A DNA stretch of 64,000 nt from Candidatus Omnitrophota bacterium (GTDB lineage: Bacteria > Omnitrophota > Gorgyraeia > Zapsychrales > Zapsychraceae), in assembly GCA_035292445.1 (NCBI GenBank), contig DATDQB010000013.1, positions 82,132 through 146,131 on the forward strand. The letters are read 5' to 3'. The notes below the pieces were generated by a model that was not told the DNA's origin, did no database searches, and saw only the letters and a program-made list of their open reading frames with translations. Of this stretch, positions 3,001 to 41,726 are shown in pieces (the stretch's first letter is position 1; every line of letters begins with the position of its first letter). The translations under genes and the position numbers were made by a program.

Positions 3001-4793
3001 CATCCCAAGTCCGTCAAGGCGACCTGTGTATCTTCATAGGCTGGTTTCATGCGCACAAGCCCCAAATGGGCCATATTCTCAAAAGCGCCGTAGATGTAAG
3101 CAAGATTTTCCTCACGGCCCTGGACCACTTCTTTGATCGAAACAAATCGGGAAGATCCGGGTTGGCCAAAACGGCTATCAAAGATTCCTTGTTGAGCCAG
3201 CGTATGCACGATGGGAACGCCTTTTTGCCCGTTGATATGCCGGAATAACGGATAAAGAACGTCCCTGGCCTGACTGATATTAACCCTGCCATCCAGGGCA
3301 ATACCCAGGCGGTCATGACGGCGTTGGGCCTCCCGAAGAGACATCAGTATGCCATCGATCTGGCGCTGTAAACGATCCCAATCTTCTCTTTCGCTTTCTT
3401 TATCAACTGTTGAAATGTCTCGTTGTAATCGAGTCAACCGACCACTTAACTCTCGAACCTCTCGTCCCATCCGCTCATGTTCCGCGACTAAAGTTACATA
3501 GGGCGCTGTCCTTAAGTTTTCATCGGCCGTCGCTTGAACCGTCATGGCATTGTCCAATTGAATATAAGGACCCGCCCTCAACGCTTCATACTCAGTCAAG
3601 TCTGGACGTACGCCTAAGAGCCCTACCGTAATACTATGAATGGACCCGTGGGCCAGCTGAGCGGCATCTGCCGGTGTCAGCTCTTCCACGCCAATAGGCG
3701 TGATTTCAGGCACAATCTTTGCCCCACCGGAGAAATACTTTCTGGGAATGATCTCTTGAGTGGCCGGGTCGTAATCTTCTTTGATAAAATCGTACACGCC
3801 TTTTTGGAAGGCCTGGAGATACTGCTCGTAAATTTTCTGCTTGGCCTGCGGGTCATCCGTATCAACGCCTTTGGTCTTGTTCTGATCGACATAAACTTTG
3901 GAAAGAATACTTTCTTTGAGAGTTTCCTTGTACCACGTGGCCAGAATGACGGCGTTATAGATCTGGCGCAAACCGGCGAAGGTCTTGCCCTCATTGATCT
4001 CTTTCTCGATCTCAGGAAGAACAATTTCTCGCATAATTTGAGTCATCAGTCGTCGGTCATCAGTCGTCAGATTTTCATGCGTTGACTGAAGACTGATGTC
4101 TGATGTCTGATGACTGATAGCTAAATAATCCTCTTCCAACATGACCTTCAGATGGCTGGCAACGATATAAGCGCTGCCTTGATGCTCCAAGACAACAGCC
4201 TTGTCCGGCACGATCCACACCTTGTTAAAAGTATTCATCGGGATGTCGGTCGTGCCGAATTTCTCAAAAGCTTTTTTGTGGACGCGTTTCCAGAATTCTT
4301 TGCCTAAATCATCTTCCGGATAGATCAGGGAAGCCGTCAGCTGTTTTAAAAGATAATCCTGACTCAAAAGATCGCGGCCCATTTCGGTGACACCGAAGGA
4401 TTCCGGAACAATACGACCTTTTTCGTAAGGTGAGAGATTAACCCAAAGCTCATCTTCCGGAACCGTTAAGGAGGCCAGAAAATATTTAATCAATCTGCTC
4501 GCTTCAACCCGCAAGGCTTCGCCCTCCAGGTTTTCATCGCCTGTATCAACAATAAAATCGAATTCAAGAGGATTGGTAGGATTCGGCGTGATGCCTTTAA
4601 TCAGAGCGGGCGTAAATCCGGGGCTTAGGGCGACCATGGTTCCGGGTGCTGGCAAGCTGAACATCCCCGGCGCGGGTAGAGATTGCGCAAAGGCCGTTGG
4701 CGGCGGAATAATAGCGCTTAAAAGAAAGCTGGCGCAAATGAAAGCGCAGAAAAGACGGTAAGCTAAAGATTTTTTGTATTGTGGATGAAACAT
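1..4793 (-). CDS. Giant multi-module secreted protein, paralog A. Start codon at 4793; ORF leaves the window at nt 1 (more than 1597 aa here). Signal peptide, conserved N-module, unknown middle module, then a pyruvate,phosphate dikinase-like module (nt ~1245 to 1 and beyond).
   Basis: Hand translation of the minus strand from ATG at 4793 gives MFHPQYKKSLAYRLFCAFICASFLLSAIIPPPTAFAQ-SLPAPGMFSLPAPGTMVAL..., then a block closely matching the N-termini of the 5097..12530, 14589..27587 and 27900..31268 ORFs (TVPEDELWVNLSPYEK, TEMGRDLLSQDYLLKQLTASLIYPE, NTFNKVWIVPDKA, PEIEKEINEGKTFAGLRQIYNAVILATWYK, IPRKYFSGG). I saw no in-frame stop down to nt 1. The ORF track omits it because its stop lies outside the window. 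The downstream module carries PPDK hallmarks: MVLGGKGANLAEM, HLVSVRSGAPESMPGMMETVLNLGLND, AIVYRANQDPPLTAEQ, GTGVAHTRDMGDG, DMEFTVVYDE. A Shine-Dalgarno-like AAGGGCAGGA lies upstream of the ATG. Confidence 0.75.
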   Translation of the reverse strand, partial: MFHPQYKKSLAYRLFCAFICASFLLSAIIPPPTAFAQSLPAPGMFSLPAPGTMVALSPGFTPALIKGITPNPTNPLEFDFIVDTGDENLEGEALRVEASRLIKYFLASLTVPEDELWVNLSPYEKGRIVPESFGVTEMGRDLLSQDYLLKQLTASLIYPEDDLGKEFWKRVHKKAFEKFGTTDIPMNTFNKVWIVPDKAVVLEHQGSAYIVASHLKVMLEEDYLAISHQTSDISLQSTHENLTTDDRRLMTQIMREIVLPEIEKEINEGKTFAGLRQIYNAVILATWYKETLKESILSKVYVDQNKTKGVDTDDPQAKQKIYEQYLQAFQKGVYDFIKEDYDPATQEIIPRKYFSGGAKIVPEITPIGVEELTPADAAQLAHGSIHSITVGLLGVRPDLTEYEALRAGPYIQLDNAMTVQATADENLRTAPYVTLVAEHERMGREVRELSGRLTRLQRDISTVDKESEREDWDRLQRQIDGILMSLREAQRRHDRLGIALDGRVNISQARDVLYPLFRHINGQKGVPIVHTLAQQGIFDSRFGQPGSSRFVSIKEVVQGREENLAYIYGAFENMAHLGLVRMKPAYEDTQVALTDLGWLMVELAKVGYLETFDGAIANALEYHDYFRRGPPIRKGDDVHKAYDEFIELVDKVERYTRVIERLKKKNYSEYSEIFNILASELDQQDLEMVKIVLPKLSSQLPMPVLQRGLIHIHSYFIGMLMSPVMVSLGMPFFNIENRIISKIGPSILELFDENGYLFFDRLPAQFNKGFIYEAFRLLHAQGLVKADKQLVSLTDKGRAFFDKVTSYGVTDAYSLIDAHLEDFLFGDPNRLNLNSDEHMGRFGRVKDIWGSSGAHHAYMGEFDEETGEITKDGILTFVRDLYHNTPLNKQSVGFFNMGSGDAQLARDVTRYILKYTDRGKNLKTHPLVVVVSDFNEAALGRERDTMAEFDGIEGLHVIVMWADVTDPEDFNEDLKARLDAIGLSGYDKDDFVHTEEFIPHERRLKIKDRDQAREIIRRAVQSVDRSRLTAALLKLGIKENDIPSDEEMLTQLVISQFEGSYSDDEPQGRLLPGYVVAADFINFLRRWIEKEPGRPNYHMRLLELHKPRANQLVEEVPNDINQPMALEQTLAPAYQGTHWPGQYILPYEEYHLAVVLAGLKTTREPMLWPNKRGLPIGVSLSAFVPEDSAMLAGTEAFEGDEHPPIYFVGNYGADIDRQLPKGNVKMKMVLGGKGANLAEMAHDDARAFLEWQKAHADDPAWLARFGITREDVLAGKYPISVPLAGTVATEQTLHFEEGETGKLSSELVERIKQLVRVQAQSMGTVWGARKGEGIPHLVSVRSGAPESMPGMMETVLNLGLNDETVEALVEATNERSAWGSYARAIEMYGQTVLGIEEEVDNSPVNFKLVKERMLEREGVSNQSRLSVEAQKELIRTFKQILADRGLEFPQDIDEQVVGAVVAVMRSSNNERAIVYRANQDPPLTAEQGRSAVTIQSMVLGNLNDYSGTGVAHTRDMGDGTKEFNIDFAFNAQGEAVVDGSLGKEEILNFDRLMERLLEVAKHIRLIGAYLEENRRDVQDMEFTVVYDEATGKSKVWM

Positions 4794-5096: not shown

Positions 5097-8000
5097 TTAA
5101 TTCAAGAGGCTGACCTTTTCAGGTTCTTTGGCTTGGACGTCAGGATTCAATCCAAATTCGTTTTCCTCTTCTTCCCCGCCCAATCCCAACAATAACGGCA
5201 GGTTCGTGACCGGTGTCACGTTAATGATGATGGGAATAAAGCCTTCGATGTGCATCTGTTGGATGGGCTGCTGGTTCATCGGCAGCGGAATGCCTTTGTC
5301 ATCGCGTTTAATTTGCAAATCTAAAAGTGCGGGGTTCAGATCGATACCACCGACCGGCCCCTGGTCTTGCGCCAACTGGGCGCCATCGGCTGGGCCTATA
5401 GCTCCTTCAACAGCACCTTTTAATTGAACAATAGTAAACGGCTTCGCCAAAATACCCAAATAATCTGAGGAACCCGCTACTTCGGCAGAAGGCGCTCCTT
5501 CATAATAACCGGACATGAGCTGCACCTTGATGCCGGGATGATTCCTGACAACATGGTCTGCCAGACTAAATCCGGTTTCATCCGGCATCACAATATCCGA
5601 TAAGACTAACACAAATTCCTGCTGAGATAATTGCTCTCTTGCTTCGGCGGCACTGGAAACAACCGTTACTTGATAACCAGCTCGCTCCAAAATCCGTCGG
5701 GCTACATTGCCCACAGATGCTTCATCATCCACCACGAGAACCCGCCGTGTTACCATCGCATTATCACCGTGGACGAAATCAGCTTCTATAAACCCACGTA
5801 ACGTTTCGCCGAAGGCTTCATCTTTTGAAATGACCCGCTTGATATCACCGGGCGACGCGGCTTGACGGTACAATTCCTTGGATGCTGTATCCCCAGCCCC
5901 AAAATCTCCAGACATCAAGATGACCGGAATATTGGGGAAATTAACATCCGCGACCCTTAGATCTGCCAGCGCTCTCGTTAATGCTATACCGCTGATCCGC
6001 GGCATGTTCAGATCTGTTAATATACCTGCAAAACGTGTCGGATTAGCTCGAATAATATCTAAGGCTATTTTCCCATCTTGGGCAACAACAACTCGGTAAC
6101 CCAGGCCTTCTAACATCTCTTTAAAATCTTCTCTTAAACCCGCATTGTCCTCGACAAGCAAAATCTCGCCCGTCACCATGGCTTGATCGGCGGATCCGAA
6201 GACTTCAGCGGCCATGGCCGAATCTCCAGAAACACTTCTTTGATTTCCGTCTCGATCAAAATAATAAAAATGCGTTTGTTGCCTCACATCTATTATAAAG
6301 ACAATAGGATAAACAAAAGCCCTGCCGCCAACATGACTGACATAAAATTCCCGCCTCTCGTTCACGGCCCTTAAAACACCCTCGCGTTCAACAAGAATGG
6401 AATCCGGAATCACGGCTTCCTTCAGAGGAAGCTCTTCCCCTAATTGGGCCAATATAACGCCCATTTTCTTGACCATTTCAGAATAAGCTTTAACGATAAA
6501 TCGAATATTGAGTAATTCGACCGGCCTTCTTAAAACAGAAAGATTCGCTTCCGTAACGTTCTGGATATCCATCGACTCTAACTCTCGCGTTGCTTCACTG
6601 ATGGTGGTGAGCAATTCATCGTCCTGAATTTGCGCATCCAGGGCGATATCTGACACTTTAGTGTAAACATTTTCTATCGATGATTTCTGCGCCCCCCTAT
6701 CTCCTCTGGTTTGACCGCGTAAAACTCTATCAGCCGCGATGTATTGTTTCATAATATCCGCGAACCTTAACAATTGTTCTCTTACTTCCGGGACGTCTTG
6801 AACACCGACGCCATAAAATGTAGCGCGAAGCTTCCTCGCCCGCTCAAAATCTTGGTCCCCTATCATCGCCGCGTCAGCCACTTGCGAGTCTGTCGAGACG
6901 TCGCTTGATAAAGCTTCTAATTGTGTTTCGACCATAGGAATATATTTAGTAATATCGGTTGCACTTAATAATAAAACCTGTGCTTGTAAAGCTAACCTTT
7001 CAGCTAATCCAAAATTCTGCGACTTTTGTTCAGCTATCCCTTCTTTCGTGACATTCGATGTGATCTGCGTATAAAATCGGATCGCTTGAGAAGTTCCTGA
7101 AGGGCGGATAGTGATATGATTTCTGCTATTAGTAAACGGGACCCCTGGCTCCAACGCTTCATCATCAAGAAAGAATCTAATGCCTTCATCCGGAAAACCT
7201 TCATAATGCTGAGCGTCATAACGCCCGGATTTGAATTCGACCGCGCCAATAATTCTTTGGCCAGATAAGACCCAAGGATTATCGGTTTGCGCCCGCGCAT
7301 TCGCTTCTTGCATCCATTCTTGAGCCTTCCTTAATAATTTAATTTTCTCCGTAATACCTTCAGCGCCTTCGAACGAGCCCACACGGGGCAAAGGCTTATT
7401 GGCTGTTGCATAATGACCGATCTGCATATAAATATCATCCAATAATTCGAATATCATTGTGCCCCGTTCTTTGGCGTAAGCTGCCACCTCTAACGCCAGG
7501 ATACCCGCAAAAACACCGTCTTTATCATTAACATGCCCGTCATCGGCTAAGATCTCTCCTTCGGCAACTGGCCCCCCCATAATGGAATAACCATTGGACT
7601 CTTCCTGCGATCCCTCATTGGTTAAACCCCGTTCACGCATCCTTTCAGCATACTGAGCTTGATACGTCATTCCCACCCATGCACGACGGCCGCTTAGATA
7701 ATCTCCCCTGTTCTCTTTTCCTGTCACATCCAACATCTCTCCGAGAGCTTGAACCCCGAACAAAGCCGCCACTTCCTCGATAGCATCTGTTGTAACATGG
7801 CTTAAACTAACAAAATGCTGCTGGGGATTCTCTAATAATCCCAGTTCTTTCTTTCTCATAAGCCTATACCATGTTAACAATGTCCAAAGATCATTTGCCG
7901 ACAATAAGCGATATTTGCCGAATAACTGCTGTTGGCTCTCAGGTACTTTGACAATCAGCCCTAAACGATCCGCATCGGGATCCGTTCCGATCAAGACATC

Positions 8001-11000
8001 TAACTGATCGAAAGCTTCCTGGCCATGCTCGGCTATAAATTCTTTTACAGCAATGTCCGCCGAAATCGAATCGCCGGGATCAGGCTGTTCTCCCCAACCA
8101 AAAGCCGGGAACAACCCGTCCAATTCCTGTAATTTTGAAATGACTTTATAATCCGTAAAACCTAACTCGGACAACAATCTGGGAACCGCTTTATTGCCCG
8201 ATCCGTTAAATGCCGAAAAGCCGATTCTTAAATTACCCGCTTGTTTTTGAACAACATCATTATCAATAATAAATTTTTTGACCTGCTCCGCATGCAACGT
8301 ATGCATGTCAATTAAATTGCCCGGCCTGCTGACATCAACTCCTTTATAATCCTTACCGTCAACGGGTGTTGCTCCGCCCAGCCATATTAATCGGCCCTCA
8401 CCAGCTTCTTCTAATGCTTTTAACTTGATATCAGCTACCGTTGTAGCATTGATAGCTTTTAAAACTTCATTCTTCATGCTTTGGGGTAACTGGGCTCCCG
8501 TGTTGTTGGTAATTTTATATCCATTGTACTGGCTTGGATTATGGCTGGCTGAGATAAGAATGCCGATATCCGCCCGAACAGCTTGTGTTGTGACACCAAA
8601 AGATAATTCCGGGAACGGGCTTGCTTCATCAAACAAATAAACAGTAAATGGATAATCCTCGCTAGACTGCCCAATAAAACTTTGTGCGATCATCTCGGCA
8701 AACTGCTCACCGGCGATCCGGCTGTCAAAGCCAATGGCGACTTTATGAAATCCGTTTGCTTTCATGTAATTGATGACACCCGCGGTGTATCGTAAAAGAA
8801 CAATATCATTGATCGTATTCGGCCCCTTCAGGATACCTGCGCCGGGCCCATAGGTTTTAAGCTCACGTAATTCATCCTCCGTTAACGCCGCTAATCCCCG
8901 AATACCAGCGGTTCCGAAGACGATATTTTGCCGAAACACTTCAACTAAATCCTTCCATCGCTCTTCCTGTATCGCTTTCAGTATTGCCACCTGTGTTTGT
9001 GGAGAAATCCTCTCGATATCAGGATTCGTTGCCCAAGCTTGGAGGTTGGGAAATGTTTCAGCAAGGGCTTTATTGAATATTTCATCGGTGATCCTTCCTT
9101 CACTATGTTGTTCTCTTAAGTAGTCCTCAATGCTACCTTTTGCAGAAGCAACCACCGAATTTCGACTCACCAGCATTGCGCGATCGGGTGAAAAGATCTC
9201 AACCTCACCTTGCTGATCAATCTTTAGACTGATATTTCTTAGAATCAATCTCCCATCATCGGTTTTCTCAAAAATACCTGCATATCGAGCATCATTAAGG
9301 TCAACTATTTCTTTAAATTCACTGGCAATCGTGACACTCCCTTCCAAGACCGCTCTTTGTAAATGCACCCGGCCGGCGATGCTTAATTCATCCAAATTCG
9401 TCATATCCGTGCCATCTAAAGCCCGAATGGCATTTTCCACATCCTCATAATACGGATCCATTGCTCCAAACCCCGGAAGATGCGGCGCGGCATTGTTGAC
9501 TAAAACACCGTTTGCGGCATCCACGCTAAAATGACCGGTGTGCGCATAAAGAATATGATCAAACGCGTATTTGGTCGGGGTAAAAAAATTGGTACGGTTT
9601 TGCGGGTCAACATTAACCATATAAAGAAGCCGCTTAAAACCATATTTGTTGTCCTCCAACAAAGCGCGCACCCTCTCGTCATCGGTCGTAGTCACAAAAG
9701 CATTTAAATTTAAAAGAGCCGAACCCATGGCTCCCTCCAACTGTTTAACGCTTCGCCCCTCTTTTATTTTTGAATTACCAATCAAATCAGGCGTAACAAT
9801 CTCATTAAATTTCTCGCGGCCGATAATCTCCAACAAATCTTTTAAGAAAGGCTGAAGCACGCTGTAATTCATAACAGCGACATTGGTATTAAAAAGCTGT
9901 CCGCCAGGCTCTCCTTGCGTTAAACCCATCTCATAAAACAGCTGTTTTTGCTCGTCAGTCACTTGAGCTAATTCAAGGATTTGCGGTGCCGACTTGCCAT
10001 TAGGCAGCACTTGCCGGCCCAATTGTCCTCCCTTTTTATCCAACGGCGTTTTAGTGGTTGTAATCATAACAATAGGGATTTTATTAGTGACCATCCAGCC
10101 AATAATATAATTGTCGGGAACATTGTTGACCCCATCACCGTTATAAACGCTGCGGATTAACGCTTGGCCGTCTGTTGGTAAATCGACCGTTAAAGCGTCC
10201 TGTAAGGCCATTGAACCTAATTGCCCATGCCCGCCCGGTGCCGTAAAATCAGTGGTTAGCTCACCCGTTTCGATATCGATGACGGGTAATGAAGCCTGTT
10301 CAATCATGCGTTGGCCAAGTTCTATGCCCGGCGTTTCCTCAATCACCTGACGATAAGTTCTTCTTTGCGAAGCGGGAATAGATTGGTCGATACGGTCAAA
10401 TAGATAAATCGTTTCACCAAGAAAATGCGTCATTGGGCCGATACTCTCTTCATTAACCAACTCTTGAATAACCAAATTGGCGAATTGACCCTGTTGGGCG
10501 GCTTTAATGGCTCGAATATATTTTAATTCTGTGATGCTGACCAATTCCGTAACTGTTATGGGTTGGCCGCTTTCATCATGTCCTTGCATCTGCACTTCAA
10601 AGAATAAATCCATTGATTTGGCGCCTAACTGAGACCGTCCCGTAAGTCGCAGTAAATAATCTTTGCGTTTAACGCTCGTTCCCAAACCACCATCCATCGG
10701 ATTGGCCAAAACAATTGATTGCGCCGCGGCTTGTGCGTAGGCAGGGTTATCAGCAATTTGCGTCGTATAGCCCATTTCCCCTAATTCTTCTTTTCTTTGA
10801 TCAGAAGTCAATAAAGCAGATGGAAAAAAATTACCGCCAATCTTCAATGATTGCTCTTGTTGTGAAGAGCTTTTCGAGCGGACATATTTAGCGTAAAGAC
10901 CCGCCATATAGGAACGATCGAACCCAGCCAGGCCTAATGGGGCAACAAAGGCTTCAAATTCGGCTAGTGAAAGCATCGCCCGGTCGGTAGGAGCGCTGGC

Positions 11001-12530
11001 CTGCAATCTCTCTCTGGCCCGGCCGAGCCTTAATATATCGTTGGCAAACTGGGTAAGCTTTTCCCTGGCCTGTCTTCTGACCTGGGCATTCCCTTCACGT
11101 GTGTCTCTTTCGGCTAGCAGGGCGGCGGCTTCGATCCTGGCGGTTAATCCATCGATTTCTTCAAGGTTATAACGGTTCTCTCTTAGACCCCGCCGCTCCT
11201 GTTGTGTTAAAGTATTATCTGCCAACATCGACTGGTCGGAACCAATAGTAGCCATAGCTCCCGTTGCCCTTTGTGCCTCGGCAACACCGTTTATTCCGAC
11301 CTCGTTCAAGGCAACCGTTACGCGCTCTGTTTCTCCGTGGTCAACCACGGCGGCAACAAAATCCGTAACTCTGCCGCGCTGCTCTGGCCTTAAAACCTCC
11401 TGGCTTGCTTTAATACTCTCGAAACTCATCATCGCCCGGTCAATAACGTATCCGCCGGAGAAATATTTGCGCGGGATCACCTCTTGGGTGGCGGGGTCGT
11501 AATCTTCCTTGATATATTCATAAACGCCTGTCTTGAACGCTTCCAGATATTGGCTGTAAATCTTCTCTTTAATGGACTTATCCTCAATATCGATGCCGAC
11601 AATTTTGTTCTGGTCGACATACACTTGGCCCAAGAGGGATTCTTTCAGATTCTCCTTGAACCAGATCGCAAGAAGCAACGAATTCGTGATCTGTCTTAAG
11701 GCGGCAAAGGTCTTGCCTTCATTGACTTCCTTTTCAATTTCGGGGATCAAGACCTCGCGAACGACCTGGGAGCTGACCTCATTAATGGCCTCGACATCTT
11801 TGTTGGCCAGCATGTCGGTGCCGAACTTTTCGCTGCCGATATTCTCCTGTAACGCAACGTAATCCTCTTCCAGCATGACGCGCATGTGGCTTTCGATGAC
11901 ATACGCCGTTCCCTGATGTTCATAAATGGTCGCTTTATCCGGCAGGATCCAAACTTTATTGAAGGTGTTAACAGGAATATCTTTTGTCCCGTACAACTCA
12001 AAAGCCTTCTTGTAAACACGATCCCAGAACTCTTTGCCCAAGTCTTTTTCCGGATAGATCAATGAAGCGGTCAATTGTTTCAAGATATAATCTTGGGCCA
12101 AAAGATCGCGGCCCATCTCCGTTTGGCCGAATTTTTCCGAGATGATCCGGTTCTTTTCATAAGGGGAAAGGTTGACCCACAGCTCATCTTCGGGAACCGT
12201 TAAGGAGGCCATGAAATATTTGATGAGCTTGTTGGCCTCCATGCGTAACTCTTCGCCTTCTATCTTGTCATCACCTGTATTGACCAAAAAATCGAATTGC
12301 AAAGGATTTTCGGGATTAAGCGTTAGACCGATGATCATGGCAGGCGTATAACCCGGGCTCACGGAAACCATTGTTCCGGGTGCGGGAAGATTCAAAATGG
12401 TTTGCGGATTGATCTGGGCGAAACTGGCTTGCGGCGGAAGAATGAGGCTTGAAATAAATGAAGCGGAAATAAGAACCGAAAGGAGCTTTCTTAAAAATGA
12501 ATTTTCGCAGGTATGCAGGTACTTAAACAT
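5097..12530 (-). CDS. Giant multi-module secreted protein, paralog B (2477 aa): signal peptide, conserved N-module, UDP-sugar pyrophosphorylase-like module, phosphohexomutase module, unknown module, two CheY-like receiver domains, conserved C-module.
   Basis: A 7.4 kb uninterrupted ORF. The N-terminus MFKYLHTCENSFLRKLLSVLISASFISSLILPPQASFAQ looks like a signal peptide. UDPGP-like motifs: NPMDGGLGTSVKRKDY and ITTTKTPLDKKGGQL. Alpha-D-phosphohexomutase motifs: IVFGTAGIRG and SASHNPSQYNGYK. Two REC domains: EILLVEDNAG...ILTDLNMP...VILMSGD and RRVLVVDDEAS...VLSDIVMPDETG...KVQLMSGY. The C-terminus is VGGIDLNPALLDLQIKRDDKGIPLP...GFIPIIINVTPVTNLPLLLG. Confidence 0.85.
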   Translation of the reverse strand: MFKYLHTCENSFLRKLLSVLISASFISSLILPPQASFAQINPQTILNLPAPGTMVSVSPGYTPAMIIGLTLNPENPLQFDFLVNTGDDKIEGEELRMEANKLIKYFMASLTVPEDELWVNLSPYEKNRIISEKFGQTEMGRDLLAQDYILKQLTASLIYPEKDLGKEFWDRVYKKAFELYGTKDIPVNTFNKVWILPDKATIYEHQGTAYVIESHMRVMLEEDYVALQENIGSEKFGTDMLANKDVEAINEVSSQVVREVLIPEIEKEVNEGKTFAALRQITNSLLLAIWFKENLKESLLGQVYVDQNKIVGIDIEDKSIKEKIYSQYLEAFKTGVYEYIKEDYDPATQEVIPRKYFSGGYVIDRAMMSFESIKASQEVLRPEQRGRVTDFVAAVVDHGETERVTVALNEVGINGVAEAQRATGAMATIGSDQSMLADNTLTQQERRGLRENRYNLEEIDGLTARIEAAALLAERDTREGNAQVRRQAREKLTQFANDILRLGRARERLQASAPTDRAMLSLAEFEAFVAPLGLAGFDRSYMAGLYAKYVRSKSSSQQEQSLKIGGNFFPSALLTSDQRKEELGEMGYTTQIADNPAYAQAAAQSIVLANPMDGGLGTSVKRKDYLLRLTGRSQLGAKSMDLFFEVQMQGHDESGQPITVTELVSITELKYIRAIKAAQQGQFANLVIQELVNEESIGPMTHFLGETIYLFDRIDQSIPASQRRTYRQVIEETPGIELGQRMIEQASLPVIDIETGELTTDFTAPGGHGQLGSMALQDALTVDLPTDGQALIRSVYNGDGVNNVPDNYIIGWMVTNKIPIVMITTTKTPLDKKGGQLGRQVLPNGKSAPQILELAQVTDEQKQLFYEMGLTQGEPGGQLFNTNVAVMNYSVLQPFLKDLLEIIGREKFNEIVTPDLIGNSKIKEGRSVKQLEGAMGSALLNLNAFVTTTDDERVRALLEDNKYGFKRLLYMVNVDPQNRTNFFTPTKYAFDHILYAHTGHFSVDAANGVLVNNAAPHLPGFGAMDPYYEDVENAIRALDGTDMTNLDELSIAGRVHLQRAVLEGSVTIASEFKEIVDLNDARYAGIFEKTDDGRLILRNISLKIDQQGEVEIFSPDRAMLVSRNSVVASAKGSIEDYLREQHSEGRITDEIFNKALAETFPNLQAWATNPDIERISPQTQVAILKAIQEERWKDLVEVFRQNIVFGTAGIRGLAALTEDELRELKTYGPGAGILKGPNTINDIVLLRYTAGVINYMKANGFHKVAIGFDSRIAGEQFAEMIAQSFIGQSSEDYPFTVYLFDEASPFPELSFGVTTQAVRADIGILISASHNPSQYNGYKITNNTGAQLPQSMKNEVLKAINATTVADIKLKALEEAGEGRLIWLGGATPVDGKDYKGVDVSRPGNLIDMHTLHAEQVKKFIIDNDVVQKQAGNLRIGFSAFNGSGNKAVPRLLSELGFTDYKVISKLQELDGLFPAFGWGEQPDPGDSISADIAVKEFIAEHGQEAFDQLDVLIGTDPDADRLGLIVKVPESQQQLFGKYRLLSANDLWTLLTWYRLMRKKELGLLENPQQHFVSLSHVTTDAIEEVAALFGVQALGEMLDVTGKENRGDYLSGRRAWVGMTYQAQYAERMRERGLTNEGSQEESNGYSIMGGPVAEGEILADDGHVNDKDGVFAGILALEVAAYAKERGTMIFELLDDIYMQIGHYATANKPLPRVGSFEGAEGITEKIKLLRKAQEWMQEANARAQTDNPWVLSGQRIIGAVEFKSGRYDAQHYEGFPDEGIRFFLDDEALEPGVPFTNSRNHITIRPSGTSQAIRFYTQITSNVTKEGIAEQKSQNFGLAERLALQAQVLLLSATDITKYIPMVETQLEALSSDVSTDSQVADAAMIGDQDFERARKLRATFYGVGVQDVPEVREQLLRFADIMKQYIAADRVLRGQTRGDRGAQKSSIENVYTKVSDIALDAQIQDDELLTTISEATRELESMDIQNVTEANLSVLRRPVELLNIRFIVKAYSEMVKKMGVILAQLGEELPLKEAVIPDSILVEREGVLRAVNERREFYVSHVGGRAFVYPIVFIIDVRQQTHFYYFDRDGNQRSVSGDSAMAAEVFGSADQAMVTGEILLVEDNAGLREDFKEMLEGLGYRVVVAQDGKIALDIIRANPTRFAGILTDLNMPRISGIALTRALADLRVADVNFPNIPVILMSGDFGAGDTASKELYRQAASPGDIKRVISKDEAFGETLRGFIEADFVHGDNAMVTRRVLVVDDEASVGNVARRILERAGYQVTVVSSAAEAREQLSQQEFVLVLSDIVMPDETGFSLADHVVRNHPGIKVQLMSGYYEGAPSAEVAGSSDYLGILAKPFTIVQLKGAVEGAIGPADGAQLAQDQGPVGGIDLNPALLDLQIKRDDKGIPLPMNQQPIQQMHIEGFIPIIINVTPVTNLPLLLGLGGEEEENEFGLNPDVQAKEPEKVSLLN

Positions 12531-13086: not shown

Positions 13087-14058
13087 ATGAAGATAAAACC
13101 CATCTATCGATTCTTTATATGGCTCGCCTTCATCGGCCTCGTTATCCTGGCCTTCCTGGCCTATTACTTCCAGAACCATGAAAAAGACCTCTTCCTTGCC
13201 GCCCTGCGGTCTTCTCTCGACCAAGGCATCAGCGCTTCCGATGTCGATTATGATTTCCCCTTCGGGTTCAGCTTGGATGACTTCCAGATCGAAGGCGTCG
13301 TTCAGGCAAAAAAATTAAGCGCCCAGCTTGACCCGCGTTCTTTCATAGAAAAAAAGATCATCCTTAGCCAGATGACCCTTCACCAGCCTATTATCACCTG
13401 GCGTAAAGAAAAAAAGGCGGCCGCTATCGCGGAAAATCAAAATGTTTCCAACGGGCCTTCGGTTGGCACCCCGAAAACGATCCCCCAGGAGGCATCAAAA
13501 CTTATTATCAAGCAGCTGCGCATAAAAAACGGCCGTTTCCATTTTGCCGATGAATCGGCCATCCCGGCCCTTTCCTTTAAGCTGGATAATCTCCAGATGA
13601 AAATCGAAGACCTTATTTTTCCGCTGTCTCCAACGGCAACCACCTTTCAATTGAAAGCCAATCTGATCAAAGAAAACGCCCCGGTTTCGGGCAGCGTTGT
13701 GCAAAGTAACGGCTGGATCGATCTGGCCAAAAAAGACCTGGATGGAACTCTTCTTATCATTGAATCGGACGGTAAGACCGGCTTAAGCGCCCATGCGATC
13801 TCAAAAAACAACGATTTAAACGTCGAAGGCAAGATCAAGGCGCAAAACTTGTTCAAACAGTCCGGCGAAAATCCATTGGAGACGACTGTGGATAATATCG
13901 TCCTTAACACCTTATCGAATATGGGCATCGAGATCGGTGCAAGTTTTTCCTTTAATACCAAACTCGATGATTTTCGCATCGAACAGATCTCTTTCTCAGG
14001 AAGCGTCTCCACTCATGAGGTTCCCGCAACCGAGCCGATGAATCCTGTTGCGCCGTAG
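13087..14058 (+). CDS. Membrane protein with an AsmA-family-like N-terminal region (323 aa): one N-terminal TM helix, then a periplasmic beta-rich region.
   Basis: The N-terminus MKIKPIYRFFIWLAFIGLVILAFLAYYF is a single TM helix. The architecture resembles the start of the 1033-aa AsmA-like protein at 31606. The gene is on the opposite strand to the giant genes and sits just after the tRNA-Arg pair. Confidence 0.55.
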   Translation: MKIKPIYRFFIWLAFIGLVILAFLAYYFQNHEKDLFLAALRSSLDQGISASDVDYDFPFGFSLDDFQIEGVVQAKKLSAQLDPRSFIEKKIILSQMTLHQPIITWRKEKKAAAIAENQNVSNGPSVGTPKTIPQEASKLIIKQLRIKNGRFHFADESAIPALSFKLDNLQMKIEDLIFPLSPTATTFQLKANLIKENAPVSGSVVQSNGWIDLAKKDLDGTLLIIESDGKTGLSAHAISKNNDLNVEGKIKAQNLFKQSGENPLETTVDNIVLNTLSNMGIEIGASFSFNTKLDDFRIEQISFSGSVSTHEVPATEPMNPVAP

Positions 14059-14588: not shown

Positions 14589-17500
14589 TTATCCTTTAAA
14601 TATCGCTATCCTATCCAACACATCCCTCAGCGTGAACTTGCGCATCGAAAGCGCTGGCGCTTTCTCTTCCTCATCCTGTGCCTGCTCGATCGGTTCATCC
14701 GGAATAAAATCTGCGATTCCCAACAGCATCGGCATATTATTGATCGGCGCGATGTTAATGATCACGGGAATAAACCCGTCAATATGAATATTTTGCAGCG
14801 GTTGCATCTCAACCGGCAGCGGAATGCCGCGGCCGTCGCGCTTAATTTGCAGGTTAAGAAGCGCCGGGTTCAAATCAATACCGCCGACCGGCGTTGTTTC
14901 TTGAGCTGTTACAGCTCTATCAATGCCGGCCGATGATGAGACGTCCTCTTCCTCTGAAGGAAAGTTGACAATTAATTGACCTTCCAAAAATTCACGGATA
15001 ATCCTTCTAAATTTAATCTCCCGCACCTTAAAATCTCTTGCCGAGTTTATGTGGGTTGCTCTTGTCAGATCTCCTTTTGAATAAAGATCCGGCGCATCTT
15101 CGCTTAGCGGGGTGCTCAATTCTTTACCATCAAGATAATGGATCAACCGGGCGAGGAGCCCGACGCGATCGCCAAATAATTCTTCATCGCCCATTTCTTC
15201 CAGTAAATCCTCGGCGATCTCCCAAGCTTCCGCAGGCGTCAGCATCGCGCCGTCGCCCTGCTCCGTCATGGCGGCATCGATGCTGACAATTGTATGATCG
15301 ACTTCCACCGGGAAGATCTCGGCTTTCAGTTCATTTCCAACGTTATAAATCTTAATCACCACGGATGTTTGGCCGCCTTCCGTTGCCTGCGTTCCAGTTT
15401 GACCAAAAACCCAATCATTGGCTATGACAGTAAAAATACCAACAACATCGCCTTTTACATCTTGTTCCGTAAAAAATTTTTGCCCATTAAGAATTGCTCC
15501 GGCATCACCATAGCTTTCCCGTATAACACGAAGCTCGGATGCCTCAGCTAACTTAAAATTATAGCGTTCGGAAAGGTCAGGCAATTCTTCTCCAGCAGCG
15601 TTTTTATTCATTTTGGCGTTATAAACCCGAACCCCGGCCACAGCGCCGATATATTTTGCGGCACCGGCAATCGCTAAGTTCATAAATCCTTCGGCCGAAC
15701 CGCCAACGGTTATAACTGTTTTGTGGACACCATAAGAACGCCCTGTTGCGGCCTCATAAAGAGCCGGTGTTAACGTCGCCCTTAACCCATGTGCAACAGT
15801 TCCATCCTGAAGCGTCTTTTGAACAACGCTCACACCTTGTATTCCATATTCTTGCTTAACCTCTTCAATGGCTCGTACAAAAGCAGTTTCTCGTTTACGG
15901 TTCATCACGATAATCTCTTCCTGAACTTGCGAGAGTTCTTGTCTACGAATAGCGGCCAAAAACTTAAGGTACGCCAAAATGCCTTCTTTAGGGTGAGCCG
16001 CATATAATTCAGGATCGTAAAGATGGTATTTTTCCCCACCCACTTCAACAGCGGCTGCCCTTAACGCGTCGGCATCTTCACCCACATTCGTAATAAACTG
16101 ATGAACGTATCCATCGGGGACGTTTCCTAAATCGCGCACACCGCGCCCGACAACAATATCGCTATTGGCTCCCGCCTCATTTTCCGGAGCTTCCTCCAAG
16201 GATCTGTTGCCAGAATTGGTGACAAACTGATTAGTCCCTTCGACCACGTCGATAATGGCATCAAGAATCGGATAATACCGGCCATTTTCGCTTAGGTAGA
16301 ATTCATCGCCACGGTCAATGGCCGCTTTAATGGCTTCGACTTCGTGTTGGATCAAGTTAGGCATAATGACTTCATTGGATTTTAAGCTTTCCGCCACTTC
16401 ATCCCGGCCGAAACCTTCGGAAACACGAACCATCATAATGATACCCAGTTCTTTGATAGTCCGTTCAAAAATCCTTTTGGCGAAACCATCGACCACATCT
16501 GTAATGGCCGTTTGCATTCTTTTTAATTCATCTTTGGCAATGGTTCCTTCTTTCCCCAAAACCATTATTGCTACTTCCGCAAATTCGCCCCTTTGCGTCG
16601 TTTGATGAAGTTGAGTAAATAACAATGCGATCTGCGTCCGCTGCTCAGATGTATCAGAGACACTTTTAACAACATCTAAAATTTTTTGATAAGCACCTCG
16701 TAAACCAAGAGCGGTTAATTTGGCGGCCGTGTGTGTTGTCAATATAACAGGCAACTCATCACGAATGGCGCGTAATCTCGTTGCTTCTTCTTTGTTTGGC
16801 TGTGCCGCCATCGCGGCGTCAAAATCCCTAATCATCTGCCCTAACTGTTCATTATCAATGTTGACCTGGACCATCCGGCCATAAACATCAACACGGGCAA
16901 CGAAGGCCTCAACGCCGATGCGCTCAATTAACGCATCGTACTCATCCATGACACCTAAGCTGGCTGCCTGGATCCTGAAGGAGGCGCGGACGAACTCGTT
17001 CTGCGCCGCTTGTTCGTTAACAAAATCCCCATTAAGGACCGTTAAAGCGGTCTCCTTGGAAGCCCTAGAGAAGGAAGCAGCATAGCGCCAAGGCGCTCCC
17101 ACCCGCTTCGCTTCTTTCACAATGGCATTTAAATTGCGGGCCGCCTGATCAGCGGTCTGCCCCCCTGATAAAAAGACAATCGTGCCTAATTCCGGAGGAA
17201 GACTATCCATATGCACGGCAACAGTCGCTCTAGCCACTTCTTCGGGTGTATCTTTAGGCGCTTTATCACCCGAGGTGACCATGCTCACTTTAATCGCGCT
17301 GCCTTTCAAATCAACCCCTAGGCGGCTGGCGGCTTCCGTATAAACCTTAAGAATACGCCTGTTCGCCTCTGCGCTGGCTTCAATATCATGAGAGCCTTTA
17401 ATCAACACCTCTGGCTCAGGCGTTGGGACCCTTCCTAATAACTGAACATCTAAAACATGTTGGGCCAACATCTCCATATTCGCTTCGATATTACGTTGCG

Positions 17501-20500
17501 TCGGAAGACCAGCATCTGTATCAATCGTAAATGTTTGACGGAATTTATCGGCATGAGATGTGGGTATCATATCCATAATCGCACGAAGGTTATCGATCCC
17601 CAAACCTTTTGGTTTAGAGAGCTTCTCGGGATCAAGGCCTTCACGGCTTGGCCGAGGGCTCTGTGTATCATCATCGATACCCCGATCAGTTTTATGGATA
17701 ATGCTTATCCCTCTTCCTTCCACGTGGGTGGCTAAAAGAGGCTTGTCTTCATCATCCACATAGCTGACGGATTCATCCTGGACAATAATGCCGCCAAAGA
17801 CATACTGGATGCCTGGGGCGGTATAGAACATCCTTCTCATTCTTTCGCGAAGAAGATAGTTCGCGCCGTCGACTTTATCAGCATCCGGATAAGCCTTTGC
17901 ATCCACTATCTTAAAACCGTATCTTTTAAGAAGTGCATTGCCTGTTGATGGAGACCCATCCGAAGCAAAGTAGTTACGGCCTCGCCCCGTCAGGCTTTGT
18001 ACTCTTTCACGAAGAAGGGTTTTTTGGACATCCGTCAACATCGCGTGATCTTCGTCTTCCGGGGGGTATTCCGAAATTGGTCTAGGCGGTAACACCTGGG
18101 TAGCGCCTGTGTCTAAATCATCTACTTCTTCCTGTTCTCCATCGACTACGGTGCCTACAGGGTTGGGGTCGCGGTTAATTTCATCCATTACTTGGAGCAA
18201 GCCTAAACCTAAACCTGAATTGACAATCAATGCTATAACGTCATCTTCACTACTCTCTCCCAATGAAAGAAGTCGATCATAGGCATCCTTGACCATGATT
18301 CTTCCAGCTAATAAATCTTCCAGAATTCGGTCAGCCGCCATCATGGCGCTGTCGCCAGAAAGCAATTGCTCACCCTGACCAATAAGACGATTGATTCGAG
18401 CTCTTTTTTCATTAAGCTCGGATGATCCCAATTCATCCGATAATTGGCCTATCTCCAAAAGAATCGCCCTTTGTCCAGCTCTCAATATATAGAGTTCGTT
18501 CTCGATGTCTTGTGCCGGTTCGGGATAAAAGGTTTCAGGTGCAGCGAAGCGCTCCTCAATGTGATCAAGGCTGACATCCTCCAAGGGAAAAGCGACCTCA
18601 TCTGCTCCTTCCAAAGGCCTGATGCGACTGATCGCTCTCTTGAGCAACCCTTCTATCGTATGTCGGTCGGTTGTAAGTTGGGCTATCTGTTGCGCAATTG
18701 AACTTCTTTCCTCTGGTCCATCTTTGAGGCTACGCTCCCTGGTCCTTAATTGTGTAATACGGGTTCTTACGCCTATCAAGGAAATTCGCAATTTGTTGAT
18801 AAGATCCGCCAATTCATTAACAGACAGATCATGTTGTAACGCCGTTTCTTTTTCTGCAATCTGTCTATGTATTTCTCCCATTAAATCATCTTTGGCTTTT
18901 AATCCGGCCCGGTCTTTCATGGTATCGCCTTTACCACCCTCAAATGATATGGCGGCAGTTTCCCCTATAGCAACCGATGTCATGAATTCCAGCCCTCTGT
19001 TGCCGGCAAAAACCTGCGGGTTGATCGACATGCCGCTTTTTTGCTTACGGCCGATCTCTTGCCACTGGGCCAGCCCGTCCATACCGTCCCTTAAATATCC
19101 CCCTTTACCGTCAGTCCCTTGCAAAAACTGCATGGTAGCGGCGTGTAGGAATGTGGATCCGCCGTAGGTGATAAAATTGAACTGGGAATATTTTCCCTGT
19201 TCCGGCAGAAATGCCTTTCTTTCTTCCGGCGTCATTAGACGACTCCCATCCTCGGTTTTGGCAAGCGGCCAATAAAAGGACGGCGACGTGTTATTTGCTT
19301 TTATTCTGGTTGTCGCATCCAGTAAACCCACGGCATCATCATGAGCTAGGTCTAACTCTTGAAGCGCTTTTAAGGCATATGAATAACTGTCCGGATCAAC
19401 TGGCCGGTTATTGTGATATGTTTCGATAATTTTCTCTACCTGAGTTTTAATTCGATCTCGAAAAGCCTGATCAAATCTTTCAAGAATTTCGTCATACCAG
19501 CCTTCGGCAAACAATAAGCGTCTGGCTTCCGCATCCAGGGCGGTTGACCACTGCTTGACTTCGCCAATATGCGGATGGTGCTGCTCAAACCAAGAAATGT
19601 CCGTATATGGCAAGGCTGATTTGGAACGGGCAATGGCCATTTCCATGCCGCTATTGATCATCCAAATGGTACGGCTTCTCTTCTCTACCGAACGGGTGAG
19701 CTGGAAATCCCATAATACGTTGATCGTGCCTGAGAAAGCTTCAGGCGCTTCATCCACCAACTGGATTTGACTGCTGTCGATGAGGCGAATTCCGATCTCT
19801 CTGGCCTTTGCTTTTACCAGATCGAAAAATCTTACGTCTCTTTCATAAGGTATAGCCGCAACAAAAGCTCTCCATTCTTCAACCGTCATACCAATCTTAT
19901 CCTGATTTGCGGCGATAGTTCTTGCCACAATTTCATCGATCGTCAAAAGATTGGCCATGATCTTCCATTGATTATGGACCTTTTGTAATTCGGAAGCCTC
20001 TAGCCCTGATTGATTGGCAGCCGTGATAACATCTTGATAGGTTTGGACCCTACCTTTGCTATCGTGAATCAAAGGTATATACTTCTGCCAGTCAGATCTA
20101 AACCGGGTGATTGTTGCCGCTATCTTTTCAGCCGGCATTTTTTTGGCAACCAGGTCTTTTTCCAATGCTTTGACTGCTTCTTCCAGACGTTCAGCTTCAT
20201 CGGCCTCAGTAACACCAAGAATAAATTTCTGATCACGTCCGTCATCATGGCCCGTGATCCATTCGGCCGATTCGGCATCGGTCCGGGCAACGATCAACGT
20301 ATTAAGACCCATGCGGTCAAACTCAAAACGGGCCTCAAGAAGTGTTTTGATCCAATGATCCGTACTATCGAGGACTTTGCCGCTCATATGCCCGCACATT
20401 TTACATCCGTGAGCTTGATCTTCAATGTGGACTGCGGCGATATGTGTTTCTTCCTCGCCCATTGACAGAACCCTTCGTGCCATCTCCTGGACCTTTAAAT

Positions 20501-23500
20501 GTCCTTCGTCAAAATCAACAAAGATAGGCACGTAGAAATCAACCGGTCTAACAAGAGAACGTTGTTCAGGCGTCATTTGGGCCCTGGCGATCTCCTGATA
20601 AATGGCATGCCATGTATTTAGCTTTGAGATCCTGGCAGCCAGTATACCCAAATAATCATATTGGTCCCGGGCACGGTCTCCTTTGCCTCTGAGCATTTGT
20701 GCATCCCATCCACCCAGATAATAGCCTTCAATATGCTTAAACAAATTCTGTTGCAGAAGAGCGAATATAATGCCGGATCTTTCTTTGAAAGCGTCATCGA
20801 TCCTTTCGTAATATTCCTGCTTTACATTCTCCATCATGGAGAACGAATCCTGAATAACACCCGTTTCAGCATCGATGAAGCCTAATGATGCTAAATGATT
20901 ATACAGGGCATCAACTTCATAATCATAAGCCACATCTAATAATTTTGTCTTTGTGATAGGTTCGGCTTGAAGAATTTCGGATACAGCCATGGCTTCGGCC
21001 ATCAATTCATTGCTAGGGCCGAAGGTATCGATGGATTTTACATCCCTGAAATACCTTCGCAGCTTGCCATTAAATTTCTCGGCCATATGGTTGGCGATCG
21101 ACCATGTTCTTAAAACAGGGCCTTGCGCAGCCGCGACTTTTTCTGCGCTCCAAACACGCTTGATCCAGCGGCCTTCGGCTCTTTGCTGGTTCCATCGCTC
21201 CTGCATGATTTGCGCTCGTTCTTCTAAAGAAGCCACCATCGCCGCATCGCCGCCCATGCGGGCAACCATGCCGCCTTCAGGTCCGGGTATATTCATCTGG
21301 GCAACTAACGCTTCATATCGCGCCAACACTTCAGGGCTAAGCGCCCCTGTGAAACGCTCTTTCCCCACCTCGATCATAGCCCACACGTCTCTTAATCGGC
21401 TTGAAACTGTCCCTTTCACATCTCCAAAGGTCGGCACCTCGTTATAGCGTTCTTCAGGATCTCTGGAACGGGCCCATTCCTCATCATTCTTGTCTTTTAT
21501 TTTTTCCCATCTTTTAATTAATCCCGCCAATTCATCTGGAAGTCTGGCAAGTTGCTCGATAGCCGATTTTCTATCCACACGATTGAGCTTATCGACACTC
21601 ACCTCTTTGCCTAAAAGAGCCGCTAAAAACGCTAATTCTTTCTCAGCCCTATCAAGATCCGCTTCTACTTGCGCTTCATACATCCCGCCTGGAAGCGCTC
21701 TGTCATATTGCGCTTTAAATCCTGCGACGCTCTGTAATAACCAATTAAAATACTCCTCGGCAACGGCCCTAGCATCCACCGCCATCGCCGCGTCACCTTC
21801 TTTGGGAGTTCCCTTCTGATCTCTCTCCCTCAATGACGCTATTATACCTCTCATATGTTTTTCAGAAGCAGCGGGTTCTTCCGGTACTAACTCACCACTT
21901 AAAGGATCTCCCCTGACAAACCTGGGTCCAAGTTCCGGCGCCCTATCTTTATCGCTGGCCGCCATCGCCGCGGCTGAAGTTAGTGAAGTTATCCTTTCCC
22001 GTATCTCTCGAATGGCCAGTTCGGTTTGTTCCTTTTCACCTTCCAGCCCCTCGACAATGACGACCTGATCTTGATATTCCACTAATTCATTTCCAATTTG
22101 TCCTAAACGCTTTTCCAGTTCTGCGATGGCACCTCGAAGCTCATCCGCCGTTCGGTATCCTTCCTCGCTGGTAAGAACGGCTTCTAAAATCCTGACCGCC
22201 CCCATCGCATTATCAATGCTGTCATCCCATTGCGCTCTTGTCCGATCAATTGTTTCCTCAAGCACTCTTTCCTCTTCCAATAAAGACGGTAAATCACCAA
22301 TGTCTCCATCTTCATATTTTGCTTTTTCTATTCTTTCTCTAACTTGAGCAAGTCGATCAATCGCGCGAAACCATTCTTTTTGGGCAGACTCATCCCCCAC
22401 CATCGCCGCGTCGATTGGTTCTTGAGAAGTCCCGCCTCTTTTTCCAAGGTGACCCATTTTTTTACGTTGAGTAAAAAGTATATCCCCTGCCGCGGCGTCA
22501 ACGGCCCGAAACATATTATCAAATGTTTCCCCATAAGCTAATTCGGCGATACGATGAGGATCCATCCGTAATTTATCCAATCTTTCAAATCCAACACTGT
22601 CCAAATTTTGTAGAATACTCGATTCAGGATAGTAGCTTCTTCTTCGCGAGTCATCGAAATCGGCTATTTTACTCAAAATATAACTGTTAGAAGCCTCTTC
22701 ACTTTGTAATCGATCTCTGAATCGGTATAAGACCCTCCTTCGCTCTGGCTCCATTAAACTTAAATAATCTAACGCCCTTGTAACTTTATCTCTTAACTGT
22801 AAATCATCAAACTGGGAAACAAAACGTTTTGCATTCTTCGGAAATTGATTACTAATACGCATAGCCCGAAAGTCTAGGGAAATCATACCTTCAATGACCG
22901 AATAGTCCTCAATCCTATCCAAAAGGATCCGTGTTGAGAAATAATCAGACAGGATCATAGCTTCAAAGATATCGGCATCCCTGTATCTTTCTGTTACCGC
23001 CATCGCCGCGTCGGTTTCCGCCACAGAGACAACCGTCTTTTCAACAAGTCTTTCTAAAGTCTCCGTAACTTCTTTAATTTTGCGTTGCAGGGGTCCTATT
23101 TTATCTTGATCATAAGCGGCAAGGGTTCTGAAGCTCAAAACGTCACCGGAACTGCGAGGTATTAAGATTCGGTAAAAGGTCTGAATCGCTTCTTGGGCTG
23201 TCGTTAAAGGTACATTTTGACCGCCTGAATCTCGAATGGCCCTTTGAAGCGTTTGAATCATCTCCAACAACCCAACCCCTTCTTCTCTGATTCTAGCGTC
23301 TTCAAAAGCTACTACCATTTCTTTAAGTTCTTCCAATTGCGCCGCCACCATCGCCGCGTCACCTTCTTTGGGAGTTCCCTTCTGATCTCTCTCCCTCAAT
23401 GACGCTATCATGTCTGTCATATGTTCTATAGAAGCAGGTTCTTCAGGTACTATCTCACCAGTTAAAGAATCTCTCCTGGCAACCCTGGGCCCCAATTCCG

Positions 23501-31514: not shown

Positions 31515-31605
31515 TTATATTTTTTGAATAGTGGCGCTTAGTATATCATTGGGTTTTGAAATTTGCAATTACTGTAAAATTACCCACTTATGCTATAATA
31601 CCGCC

Positions 31606-41608: not shown

Positions 41609-41726
41609 AATAGTACTATTCAAATTAATATTTATGGAAAGTAGTGCCCCTATTTTTATACAAGGAAAGAAAACTGTCAAGCTTCATTTAAGAATCCCCC
41701 TTTAAAACGCCTTTAATCCGAGCGGT

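Follow-up and report, generated by a model that had tools for sequence, protein, structure and literature searches.

Bacteria of the phylum Omnitrophota are ubiquitous and ultra-small, have not been cultured and probably depend on hosts. Where their very long multi-enzyme proteins go is a recognised puzzle, and so is the presence of signal peptides ahead of glycolytic and other cytoplasmic enzymes. The giant proteins described from this phylum, including the 'multi-enzyme' proteins and 'Archaeovorin', contain the same types of cargo as the proteins reported here; their topology paradox was left open, and their authors describe N-terminal regions without identifiable domains (10.1101/2023.11.21.568195; 10.64898/2026.06.07.730766). 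We analysed a stretch of 64,000 nucleotides, the window, from a Candidatus Omnitrophota bacterium (assembly GCA_035292445.1, contig DATDQB010000013.1, positions 82,132 to 146,131), and all coordinates below are those of the window. Its minus strand carries four long open reading frames (ORFs), here named A-D. In brief, the four proteins are paralogous in an N-terminal module, the head, which directly follows a stretch with signal-peptide features. The head is followed by a variable cargo of enzymes and co-occurs with a short conserved C-terminal segment, the tail. The head is restricted to this phylum and absent from the domain libraries.

The proteins of this family resemble the described giants in phylum, in having a signal peptide and in carrying cargo such as PGM/PMM, fructose-bisphosphate (FBP) aldolase, pyruvate phosphate dikinase (PPDK), receivers and methyltransferases on one polypeptide. 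They differ in size and topology. The giants are at least 10,000 aa long and mostly have many transmembrane (TM) helices, whereas A-D are 1,122-4,332 aa long and have no further convincing TM helix behind the signal peptide; the only borderline hydrophobic peaks are at A 715-735, at C 3116-3134 and in the proline-rich tail strands. Term searches of the texts of the two giant-protein papers found no description of the head, the tail or the D-x-A-M linkers treated below, and literature searches with the motif strings and for an Omnitrophota N-terminal domain found none either.

Protein A (3-4793, minus strand) is cut by the window start, and B (5097-12530), C (14589-27587) and D (27900-31268), all on the same strand, are 2,477, 4,332 and 1,122 aa long, respectively. 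A 4,030-aa database protein, P0122, has a head with 100% identity to the A head, and on this basis we take it as full-length protein A. A tblastn search with B residues 1-375 against the window gave exactly four head copies, the one in B at 12530-11406, and those in A at 4796-3714 (E 1e-157), in C at 27587-26508 (E 3e-156) and in D at 31226-30171 (E 3e-142). The original prediction, made from the letters of the window, had placed a shared N-terminal module at these same positions in four giant proteins. Its coordinates agree with the tblastn copies, and E values of 1e-142 to 1e-157 put the common module far beyond chance; 'giant' is a loose word for D with its 1,122 aa.

The four-way alignment of A-D has a mean column identity of 70% over 400 aa. 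The mature heads comprise about 322 aa with pairwise identities of 55-70%, and their similarity breaks off right behind (Y/F)SGG, which is reached at residue 357 in A and 360 in B-D. By translation, alignment and tblastn, the head module spans 3723..4685 in A (Q37-G357), 11451..12416 in B (mature residues Q39-G360, for which a structure was also modelled) and 26508..27473 in C (Q39-G360). The most divergent of the four copies is that of D, at 30189..31154 (Q39-G360); all four lie on the minus strand. The motifs quoted in the original prediction are present but not literally in all four proteins. D deviates by one or two residues, with LPTPGTLL, TVPSEELWVNLSPYEEDRI, DSHLKVMLEEDY and VPKRYYSGG, and so does A in places, with EKGRI and ASHLKV. 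Protein D occurs as an identical sequence on 6 contigs from ENA and JGI metagenome assemblies and is therefore not an assembly artefact.

It had been proposed that the head is not a named domain, and this held in domain libraries, PDB sequences and PDB folds alike; none of the well-known peptidase or adhesin domains matched it. The heads of A-D have no significant match in Pfam-A, NCBIfam, PHROGs or PADLOC, and the best library matches of heads, tails and the whole of protein D reach only E>=0.06, far under the curated cut-offs. A profile of the four head copies gave 0 matches at E<=10 against PDB sequences. The AlphaFold2 (AF2) model of B residues 1-380, built on a 76-sequence alignment, is reasonably confident (pLDDT 79.9, pTM 0.76). 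Past the signal helix it consists of a mixed alpha/beta domain with hairpins at 65-84, 193-220 (the long one) and 341-354, and helices at 92-111, 138-157, 163-180, 221-231, 247-271, 276-295 and 320-333. A Foldseek search of the whole PDB with this model found no fold match (best E 0.12, TM-score at most 0.2). Faint matches to ClyA/NheA-type toxins were judged to be noise.

The putative signal peptides comprise residues 1-36 in A (4686..4793) and 1-38 in B (12417..12530), C (27474..27587) and D (31155..31268), all on the minus strand. They end in TAFA, ASFA, SVYA and LSSA, respectively, each followed by Q, and cleavage at this point in B is a prediction. Statistics were collected for 203 family N-termini. 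A hydrophobic 13-mer (h-region) is found in 198/203, and 182/203 have A-Q between the hydrophobic core and an LxLPxPG motif, which makes the signal-peptidase-like site seen in A-D a feature of the family. At position -3, 92% have A, S, V, G or T. The net charge is +3.5 in the n-region vs about 0 over the first 20 mature residues. The family fits the pattern of a signal peptidase I (SPase I) substrate, which is a positively charged n-region, a hydrophobic h-region of 10-16 residues and small uncharged residues at -3 and -1, and by its sequence the N-terminus is a textbook case with a predicted N-in/C-out orientation. The conservation of the cleavage site implies that the site is used, and we infer from the same features that the proteins are cleaved and exported. 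An N-terminal Gln can cyclise to pyroglutamate, which the near-invariant +1 Gln would allow at the mature N-terminus. The original suggestion of a targeting, anchoring or export role for the head fits the predicted cleavable Sec signal that is conserved directly ahead of it.

The head defines a large family. A word-indexed protein search gave at least 1,370 family proteins, and nearly all named matches are 'Candidatus Omnitrophica/Omnitrophota hypothetical protein'. An exhaustive search with a profile of the four head copies against 1.84 billion representatives, in clusters at 50% identity, gave 8,268 clusters at E<=1e-3 and 6,544 at E<=1e-30. Virtually all of the best 150 profile matches have the head at residues ~1-370, and the best matches range from about 400 to 5,312 aa in length. 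Essentially every match has the module at its N-terminus and a different cargo behind it, which bears out the original description of an invariant head in a variable-cargo family.

A scan of one genome per GTDB species gave at least 567 head loci, of which 78 were examined. These come from metagenome-assembled genomes (MAGs) labelled Omnitrophota, Planctomycetales or unclassified bacterium, and we read all of them as Omnitrophota. Several MAGs contribute more than one locus (OFTM38 7, MAG246 4 and HK-STAS-OMNI-4 3), and 2-4 head copies per 21-kb locus are common. Some members, such as P0019, P0120 and those of loci L006, L008 and L009, have MAG labels of Heimdallarchaeota, Pacearchaeota or 'uncultured Planctomycetales'; most likely these labels reflect binning contamination or default taxonomy on Omnitrophota contigs. 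The head family is found only in Omnitrophota.

The best foreign heads are 65-74% identical to the window heads, compared with 55-70% among the window paralogues. The latter are no closer to each other than to foreign heads and are therefore old; the conservation of the head is therefore due to constraint and not to gene conversion, and concerted evolution was ruled out on the same ground. That all of these old paralogues have kept 55-74% identity suggests that every copy has to fit one common partner.

The original prediction overlooked the tail, which makes up the second half of the conserved unit. The tail comprises 57 aa with the consensus GGIDLNP..LQIKRDG.G.PLP…GF.PVIINITP..NLPLLLG. Within the window it is common to B, C and D, with the consensus GGIDLNPALL.LQIKRD..GIPLP....QP.....I.GFIP.IINI.P..N.P.LLG, and the C-terminus of A lies outside the window. 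On the minus strand it is located at 5181..5351 in B (residues 2394-2450, GGIDLNPALLDLQIKRDDKGIPLP...GFIPIIINVTPVTNLPLLLGL), at 14715..14885 in C (residues 4235-4291) and at 27909..28079 in D (residues 1064-1120). The tail of D is divergent, its hydrophobic strand being replaced by GFEPVITRVERDLNMQQELGL. A similar divergent tail is found in P0154, whose head is also the closest relative of the D head. The tails of B, C and D have no match in Pfam or NCBIfam, and a database search with the tail profile was uninformative, returning only short contig-edge fragments.

Hidden Markov models (HMMs) of head and tail were run on all stop-to-stop ORFs of the 78 loci and the window. The head is present in 112 ORFs, the tail in 86 and both in 73. 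Among the complete head ORFs, that is, those with a stop inside the locus and no masked residues, 70/73 (96%) have the tail, and the other three look truncated or frameshifted. Of the 13 ORFs with only a tail, all but possibly one (L032 100-1720) can be put down to N runs, to locus edges or to a stop or frameshift that immediately follows a head ORF. The distance from head to tail varies from 341 to 3,842 aa, with a median of 1,164. AF2 modelling of a complete member of 633 aa gave the tail (561-620) a pLDDT of 77-93 and the linkers and cargo one of 35-74. The modelled tail contains a 14-residue hydrophobic beta-strand, which as modelled would need a partner sheet longer than the tail itself offers.

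Asn is the last residue in ~23% of complete members, often as (V/L)S.LN-COOH, and is rare at this position in control ORFs. It comes after a moderately acidic post-tail extension, and B ends in EKVSLLN.

We tentatively suggest that head and tail together form a frame, specific to the phylum, that sorts or anchors multi-enzyme proteins exported by Sec. It would bring them to, or hold them at, one extracytoplasmic site, and the tail would dock either on the head or on a partner that both have in common. This is the reading we favour, and we hold it to be somewhat short of probable. The strongest arguments for it are a signal that appears to have been selected for cleavage, the strict terminal positions of both modules, their near-obligate coupling across exchangeable cargo, although the two blocks are otherwise unrelated, and the 55-74% conservation among paralogues. 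That the head carries no signature of a catalytic family also speaks for it. In brief, the signal peptide would lead the N-terminus across the cytoplasmic membrane, where signal peptidase I would cut between A-x-A and Q and leave the head as the mature N-terminus, its Gln probably cyclised. The head of ~322 aa would then fold into an alpha/beta domain for which no known relatives can be detected. Exchangeable cargo of 340-3,800 aa and the 57-aa beta-rich tail would follow, and the tail strand GF-PVIINITP--NLPLLLG would probably pair with the long beta-hairpin of the head or with a partner that it has in common with the head. Head and tail would in this way be a common handle that sorts or retains the paralogues at one site, be it the envelope, the cell surface or the interface with prey, and the variable activities would come from cargo modules set apart, in this lineage, by D-x-A-M linkers.

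The same tail strand could instead complete the head sheet of another molecule, giving a self-assembling coat or head-to-tail polymer in which dozens of paralogues would display the enzymes on one extracellular lattice or chain. Such an arrangement would be analogous to donor-strand complementation in chaperone-usher pili, and the lattice would be the 'coat' of Velamenicoccus-type cells. A surface coat and giant surface proteins have been described in Omnitrophota (PMC10066038). Shared assembly interfaces would be expected to keep ancient paralogues at 55-74% over 320 aa, and the 14-residue hydrophobic strand modelled at high confidence, the near-obligate coupling of head and tail and the lack of separate anchoring machinery linked to the family genes are all in keeping with it. 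However, intramolecular docking accounts for the same data, the AF2 model of the head alone is already confident without a tail, and the hydrophobic strand has been lost in D and P0154. We regard a polymer of this kind as unlikely.

The cargo consists of variable, cytoplasm-type enzymes that are unrelated between members. Taken together with P0122, protein A carries Pfam matches to an AprA-like winged-helix and methyltransferase, followed by a complete PPDK (N, mobile and PEP-binding domains in P0122), and P0122 has in addition ~1,700 unannotated residues. The cargo of B (5352..11429, minus strand) contains a UDP-glucose pyrophosphorylase-like (UDPGP) domain (740-1061), a phosphoglucomutase (PGM_PMM_I/II, 1238-1526) and two receiver domains (Response_reg, 2123-2207 and 2264-2374). 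That of C (14886..26483, minus strand) contains malate synthase (MS_TIM-barrel, 861-1089), isocitrate lyase (ICL, 2282-2473) and a class-I FBP aldolase (Glycolytic, 3247-3546). Protein D has no recognisable Pfam domain in its cargo.

In 33 other complete members most of the cargo is unannotated, and the annotated part includes PGM/PMM, receivers, UDPGP, PEPCK, alanine dehydrogenase, guanylate kinase, PfkB kinase, GHKL ATPase, peptidase M3 and HEAT repeats. Where inspected, catalytic signatures are intact, namely SASHNP in B, KMCGH in C and TDLNMP in B, which we take to be those of PGM, ICL and a receiver, respectively. Protein C combines both glyoxylate-shunt enzymes with the class-I FBP aldolase in one polypeptide that has a signal peptide. 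One family member (in alignment A4) has a Por_Secre_tail match somewhere in the protein, at E 1.8e-6.

It is the cargo that presents the main difficulty for a sorting and anchoring role of head and tail, as it depends on cytoplasmic cofactors. PPDK, UDPGP, PEPCK, the kinases, malate synthase and the receivers need ATP, UTP, GTP, acetyl-CoA or phosphorelay partners, which are missing outside the cell and in the periplasm. With such nucleotide- or CoA-dependent enzymes as cargo, a simple export story is therefore paradoxical, and export looks functionally odd unless the enzymes reach another cell or compartment. Other observations weigh on the same side. Invariant polar residues are dense in the head (N120, D147, K151, D223, E268, N270, R279 and Q280), and such a set would equally suit an enzyme or a ligand-binding site. 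Four short, apparently complete members (P0118, P0033, P0047 and P0065) have a head and no tail. Clustering of neighbouring genes over the 78 loci gave no family present in more than 6 loci, and no conserved neighbouring transporter, usher or sortase-like gene was found in them. As regards P0118, its end is a hydrophobic, TM-like segment in place of the tail, and it may be an alternative anchoring variant.

The intact catalytic motifs of cytoplasm-type enzymes and receivers would be easier to understand if the N-terminal segment were an uncleaved anchor, or were not used for export at all, and the head organised the multi-enzyme polypeptides as a scaffold at the inner face of the cytoplasmic membrane. 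ATP, UTP, acetyl-CoA and kinases would then be at hand. West-Roberts et al. (10.1101/2023.11.21.568195) note that an error in predicted topology could be the reason why such domains come out as extracellular. The N-terminus itself argues against this. Its n-region charge of +3.5 and the uncharged stretch after the h-region predict an N-in/C-out orientation, the h-region is short, and the small -3/-1 residues and the +1 Gln are kept in ~90% of members. Such conservation is only sensible if the site is cleaved, which speaks against an uncleaved anchor, and A-D have no second convincing TM helix. We consider a cytoplasmic scaffold quite unlikely.

The modules of the cargo are set apart by a short motif, D-x-A-M-[LVTM]-[ASTV], that occurs 25 times in A-D vs ~1.5 expected. 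Its first copy lies 4-57 residues past the end of the head, at 11430..11441 in B (DRAM, residues 364-367, 4 residues past the head), 26484..26495 in C (DMAM, residues 365-368), 30093..30104 in D (DEAM, residues 389-392) and 3543..3554 in A (DNAM, residues 414-417), all on the minus strand. Pairs of the motif flank the enzymes of C, at 627/1281 around malate synthase, 2114/3079 around ICL and 3180/3590 around the aldolase. Each of the two receivers of B has the motif directly ahead of it, and so does the tail in several members. In the cargo of 70 complete proteins we counted 124 occurrences against 10.6 expected, a 12-fold excess, whereas control ORFs of the same loci show no enrichment (14 observed vs 15.7 expected). 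The motif is missing from 32/70 complete members, and in these SSP[VIL] is strongly enriched in the cargo (34 occurrences, loci L006-L083), which suggests that linker motifs are lineage-specific. By its placement, D-x-A-M appears to be a lineage-specific module-boundary signal, and it may be a processing site. The idea that it encodes an internal Shine-Dalgarno sequence and start codon was dropped, as the residue before D is not conserved, a judgement made at the protein level.

That the head is an enzyme, for instance a processing protease that acts in cis on the D-x-A-M or SSP[VIL] linkers, or an autoprocessing domain, would agree with the 12-fold enrichment of D-x-A-M in the cargo, with its place 4-57 residues past the head and around each enzyme domain of C and with the many invariant charged and polar residues of the head, but is improbable, since no Ser, Cys or His and no HExxH occurs among the conserved columns, no peptidase family or fold was matched, and the heads of the 32/70 complete members without D-x-A-M are equally conserved.

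The sorting and anchoring role that we favour for head and tail can be taken further. We speculate that the two could be a split docking domain unique to Omnitrophota, acting in cis or head-to-tail in trans, that joins dozens of Sec-exported paralogues in a common extracytoplasmic enzyme layer or a prey-directed arsenal. The D-x-A-M and SSP[VIL] linkers would in that case be processing sites that release PPDK, PGM, the glyoxylate-shunt enzymes and aldolase outside the cytoplasm of the producer. This extension is doubtful as it stands. If true, it would be a new kind of sorting and assembly system for proteins, through which nanobacteria move metabolism out of the cell and onto or into their hosts.

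Elsewhere in the window, two genes of the AsmA/DUF748/YhdP-like type, an envelope lipid-bridge family, are encoded on the plus strand at 13087-14058 and 31531-34632, divergent from the family genes. As an obligate partner they were rejected, being neighbours in only 5 of 78 other loci. A lone secretin (Secretin_N and Secretin) at 40049-41680 on the minus strand lies 9 kb from protein D, and no GspE/F-type genes are found near it in the window; it too was rejected as an obligate partner (only 3 of 78 other loci). Beside the secretin, at 41727-43037 on the same strand, is a Rce1-like CPBP intramembrane protease fused to TPR repeats. Two ORFs have no Pfam match, one of 415 aa (44016-45263, plus strand) and one of 391 aa (61622-62797, minus strand). 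The remaining genes are housekeeping genes, encoding Ham1, RNase PH, QueC/QueE-like proteins, glutamate racemase, amidase, RsmB, inositol-phosphate synthase, ALAD, MetE, CysS and Lgt. On one 444-kb contig a solitary family gene is located amid arsenic-resistance genes.

The frame of head and tail gives a concrete handle on the puzzle of cytoplasmic enzymes behind signal peptides in Omnitrophota. Members of the family so defined can be counted genome by genome, a common partner or assembly is predicted for them, and the cleavage site, head, linkers and tail are short sequences that can be tested. Two domain families added to the databases would annotate thousands of 'hypothetical proteins'.

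Several known systems have a conserved terminal module on variable proteins. The TPS domain of TpsA proteins is likewise a conserved module of ~250-300 aa right after a Sec signal. It is a handle for the secretion of large proteins whose C-terminal parts vary. Unlike TpsA, none of the four heads matches the TPS (haemagglutination activity) models of Pfam or NCBIfam at E<=1, and the modelled head does not have the right-handed parallel beta-helix of that domain. No gene for TpsB (Omp85/POTRA) is present in the window or among the recurrent neighbours of the 78 loci.

Proteins of the type IX secretion system (T9SS) of Bacteroidota also combine a Sec signal, diverse cargo and a short C-terminal sorting domain in scattered paralogues. 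Their C-terminal domain is, in contrast, an Ig-like beta-sandwich of ~80 aa with its own Pfam/TIGRFAM models and no conserved N-terminal partner, and they belong to another phylum. The tails of B, C and D have no match to a Por_Secre_tail/TIGR04183-type domain.

LapA-type RTX adhesins have an N-terminal retention module and a C-terminal secretion signal, two ends that cooperate to retain the protein at the surface, and LapG releases them by cutting at a di-alanine motif. As in the head-tail family, both ends are conserved in a long modular protein, with a short Ala-containing motif near the N-terminal module. LapA is, however, exported by type I secretion without a Sec signal and carries RTX and adhesin repeats instead of enzymes; the Pfam scan of A-D found no RTX or type I secretion signature.

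An autotransporter (type Va/Ve) would have a 12-stranded barrel of at least ~250 aa at its C-terminus (Va) or N-terminus (Ve), and the family has a tail of 57 aa, a predominantly helical head and no barrel. A PEP-CTERM/LPXTG-type signal is not seen either. The hydrophobic stretch of the tail is interrupted by proline, has a Kyte-Doolittle value of 1.5-1.7 and is modelled as a beta-strand where such signals have a TM helix, and the residues beyond the tail (D+E 17%, K+R 12%) do not form the basic cluster that would come next. In the recurrence of D-x-A-M-[LVTM]-[ASTV] at the boundaries of independently folding enzyme modules the family resembles viral and bacterial polyproteins. It differs from them in that cleavage at the motif is putative and about half of its members are without D-x-A-M.

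The closest relatives in content remain the giants of the same phylum. Proteins A-C show the tiled enzymes of the class 1 'multi-enzyme metabolic clusters' of Nielsen & Lui and fall below the 10,000-aa length threshold of that class. By phylum and cargo the head-tail family belongs with the Omnitrophota multi-enzyme proteins, as a shorter class, and its head and tail are apparently two new domain families that frame variable cargo in the manner of known terminal trafficking and anchoring modules.

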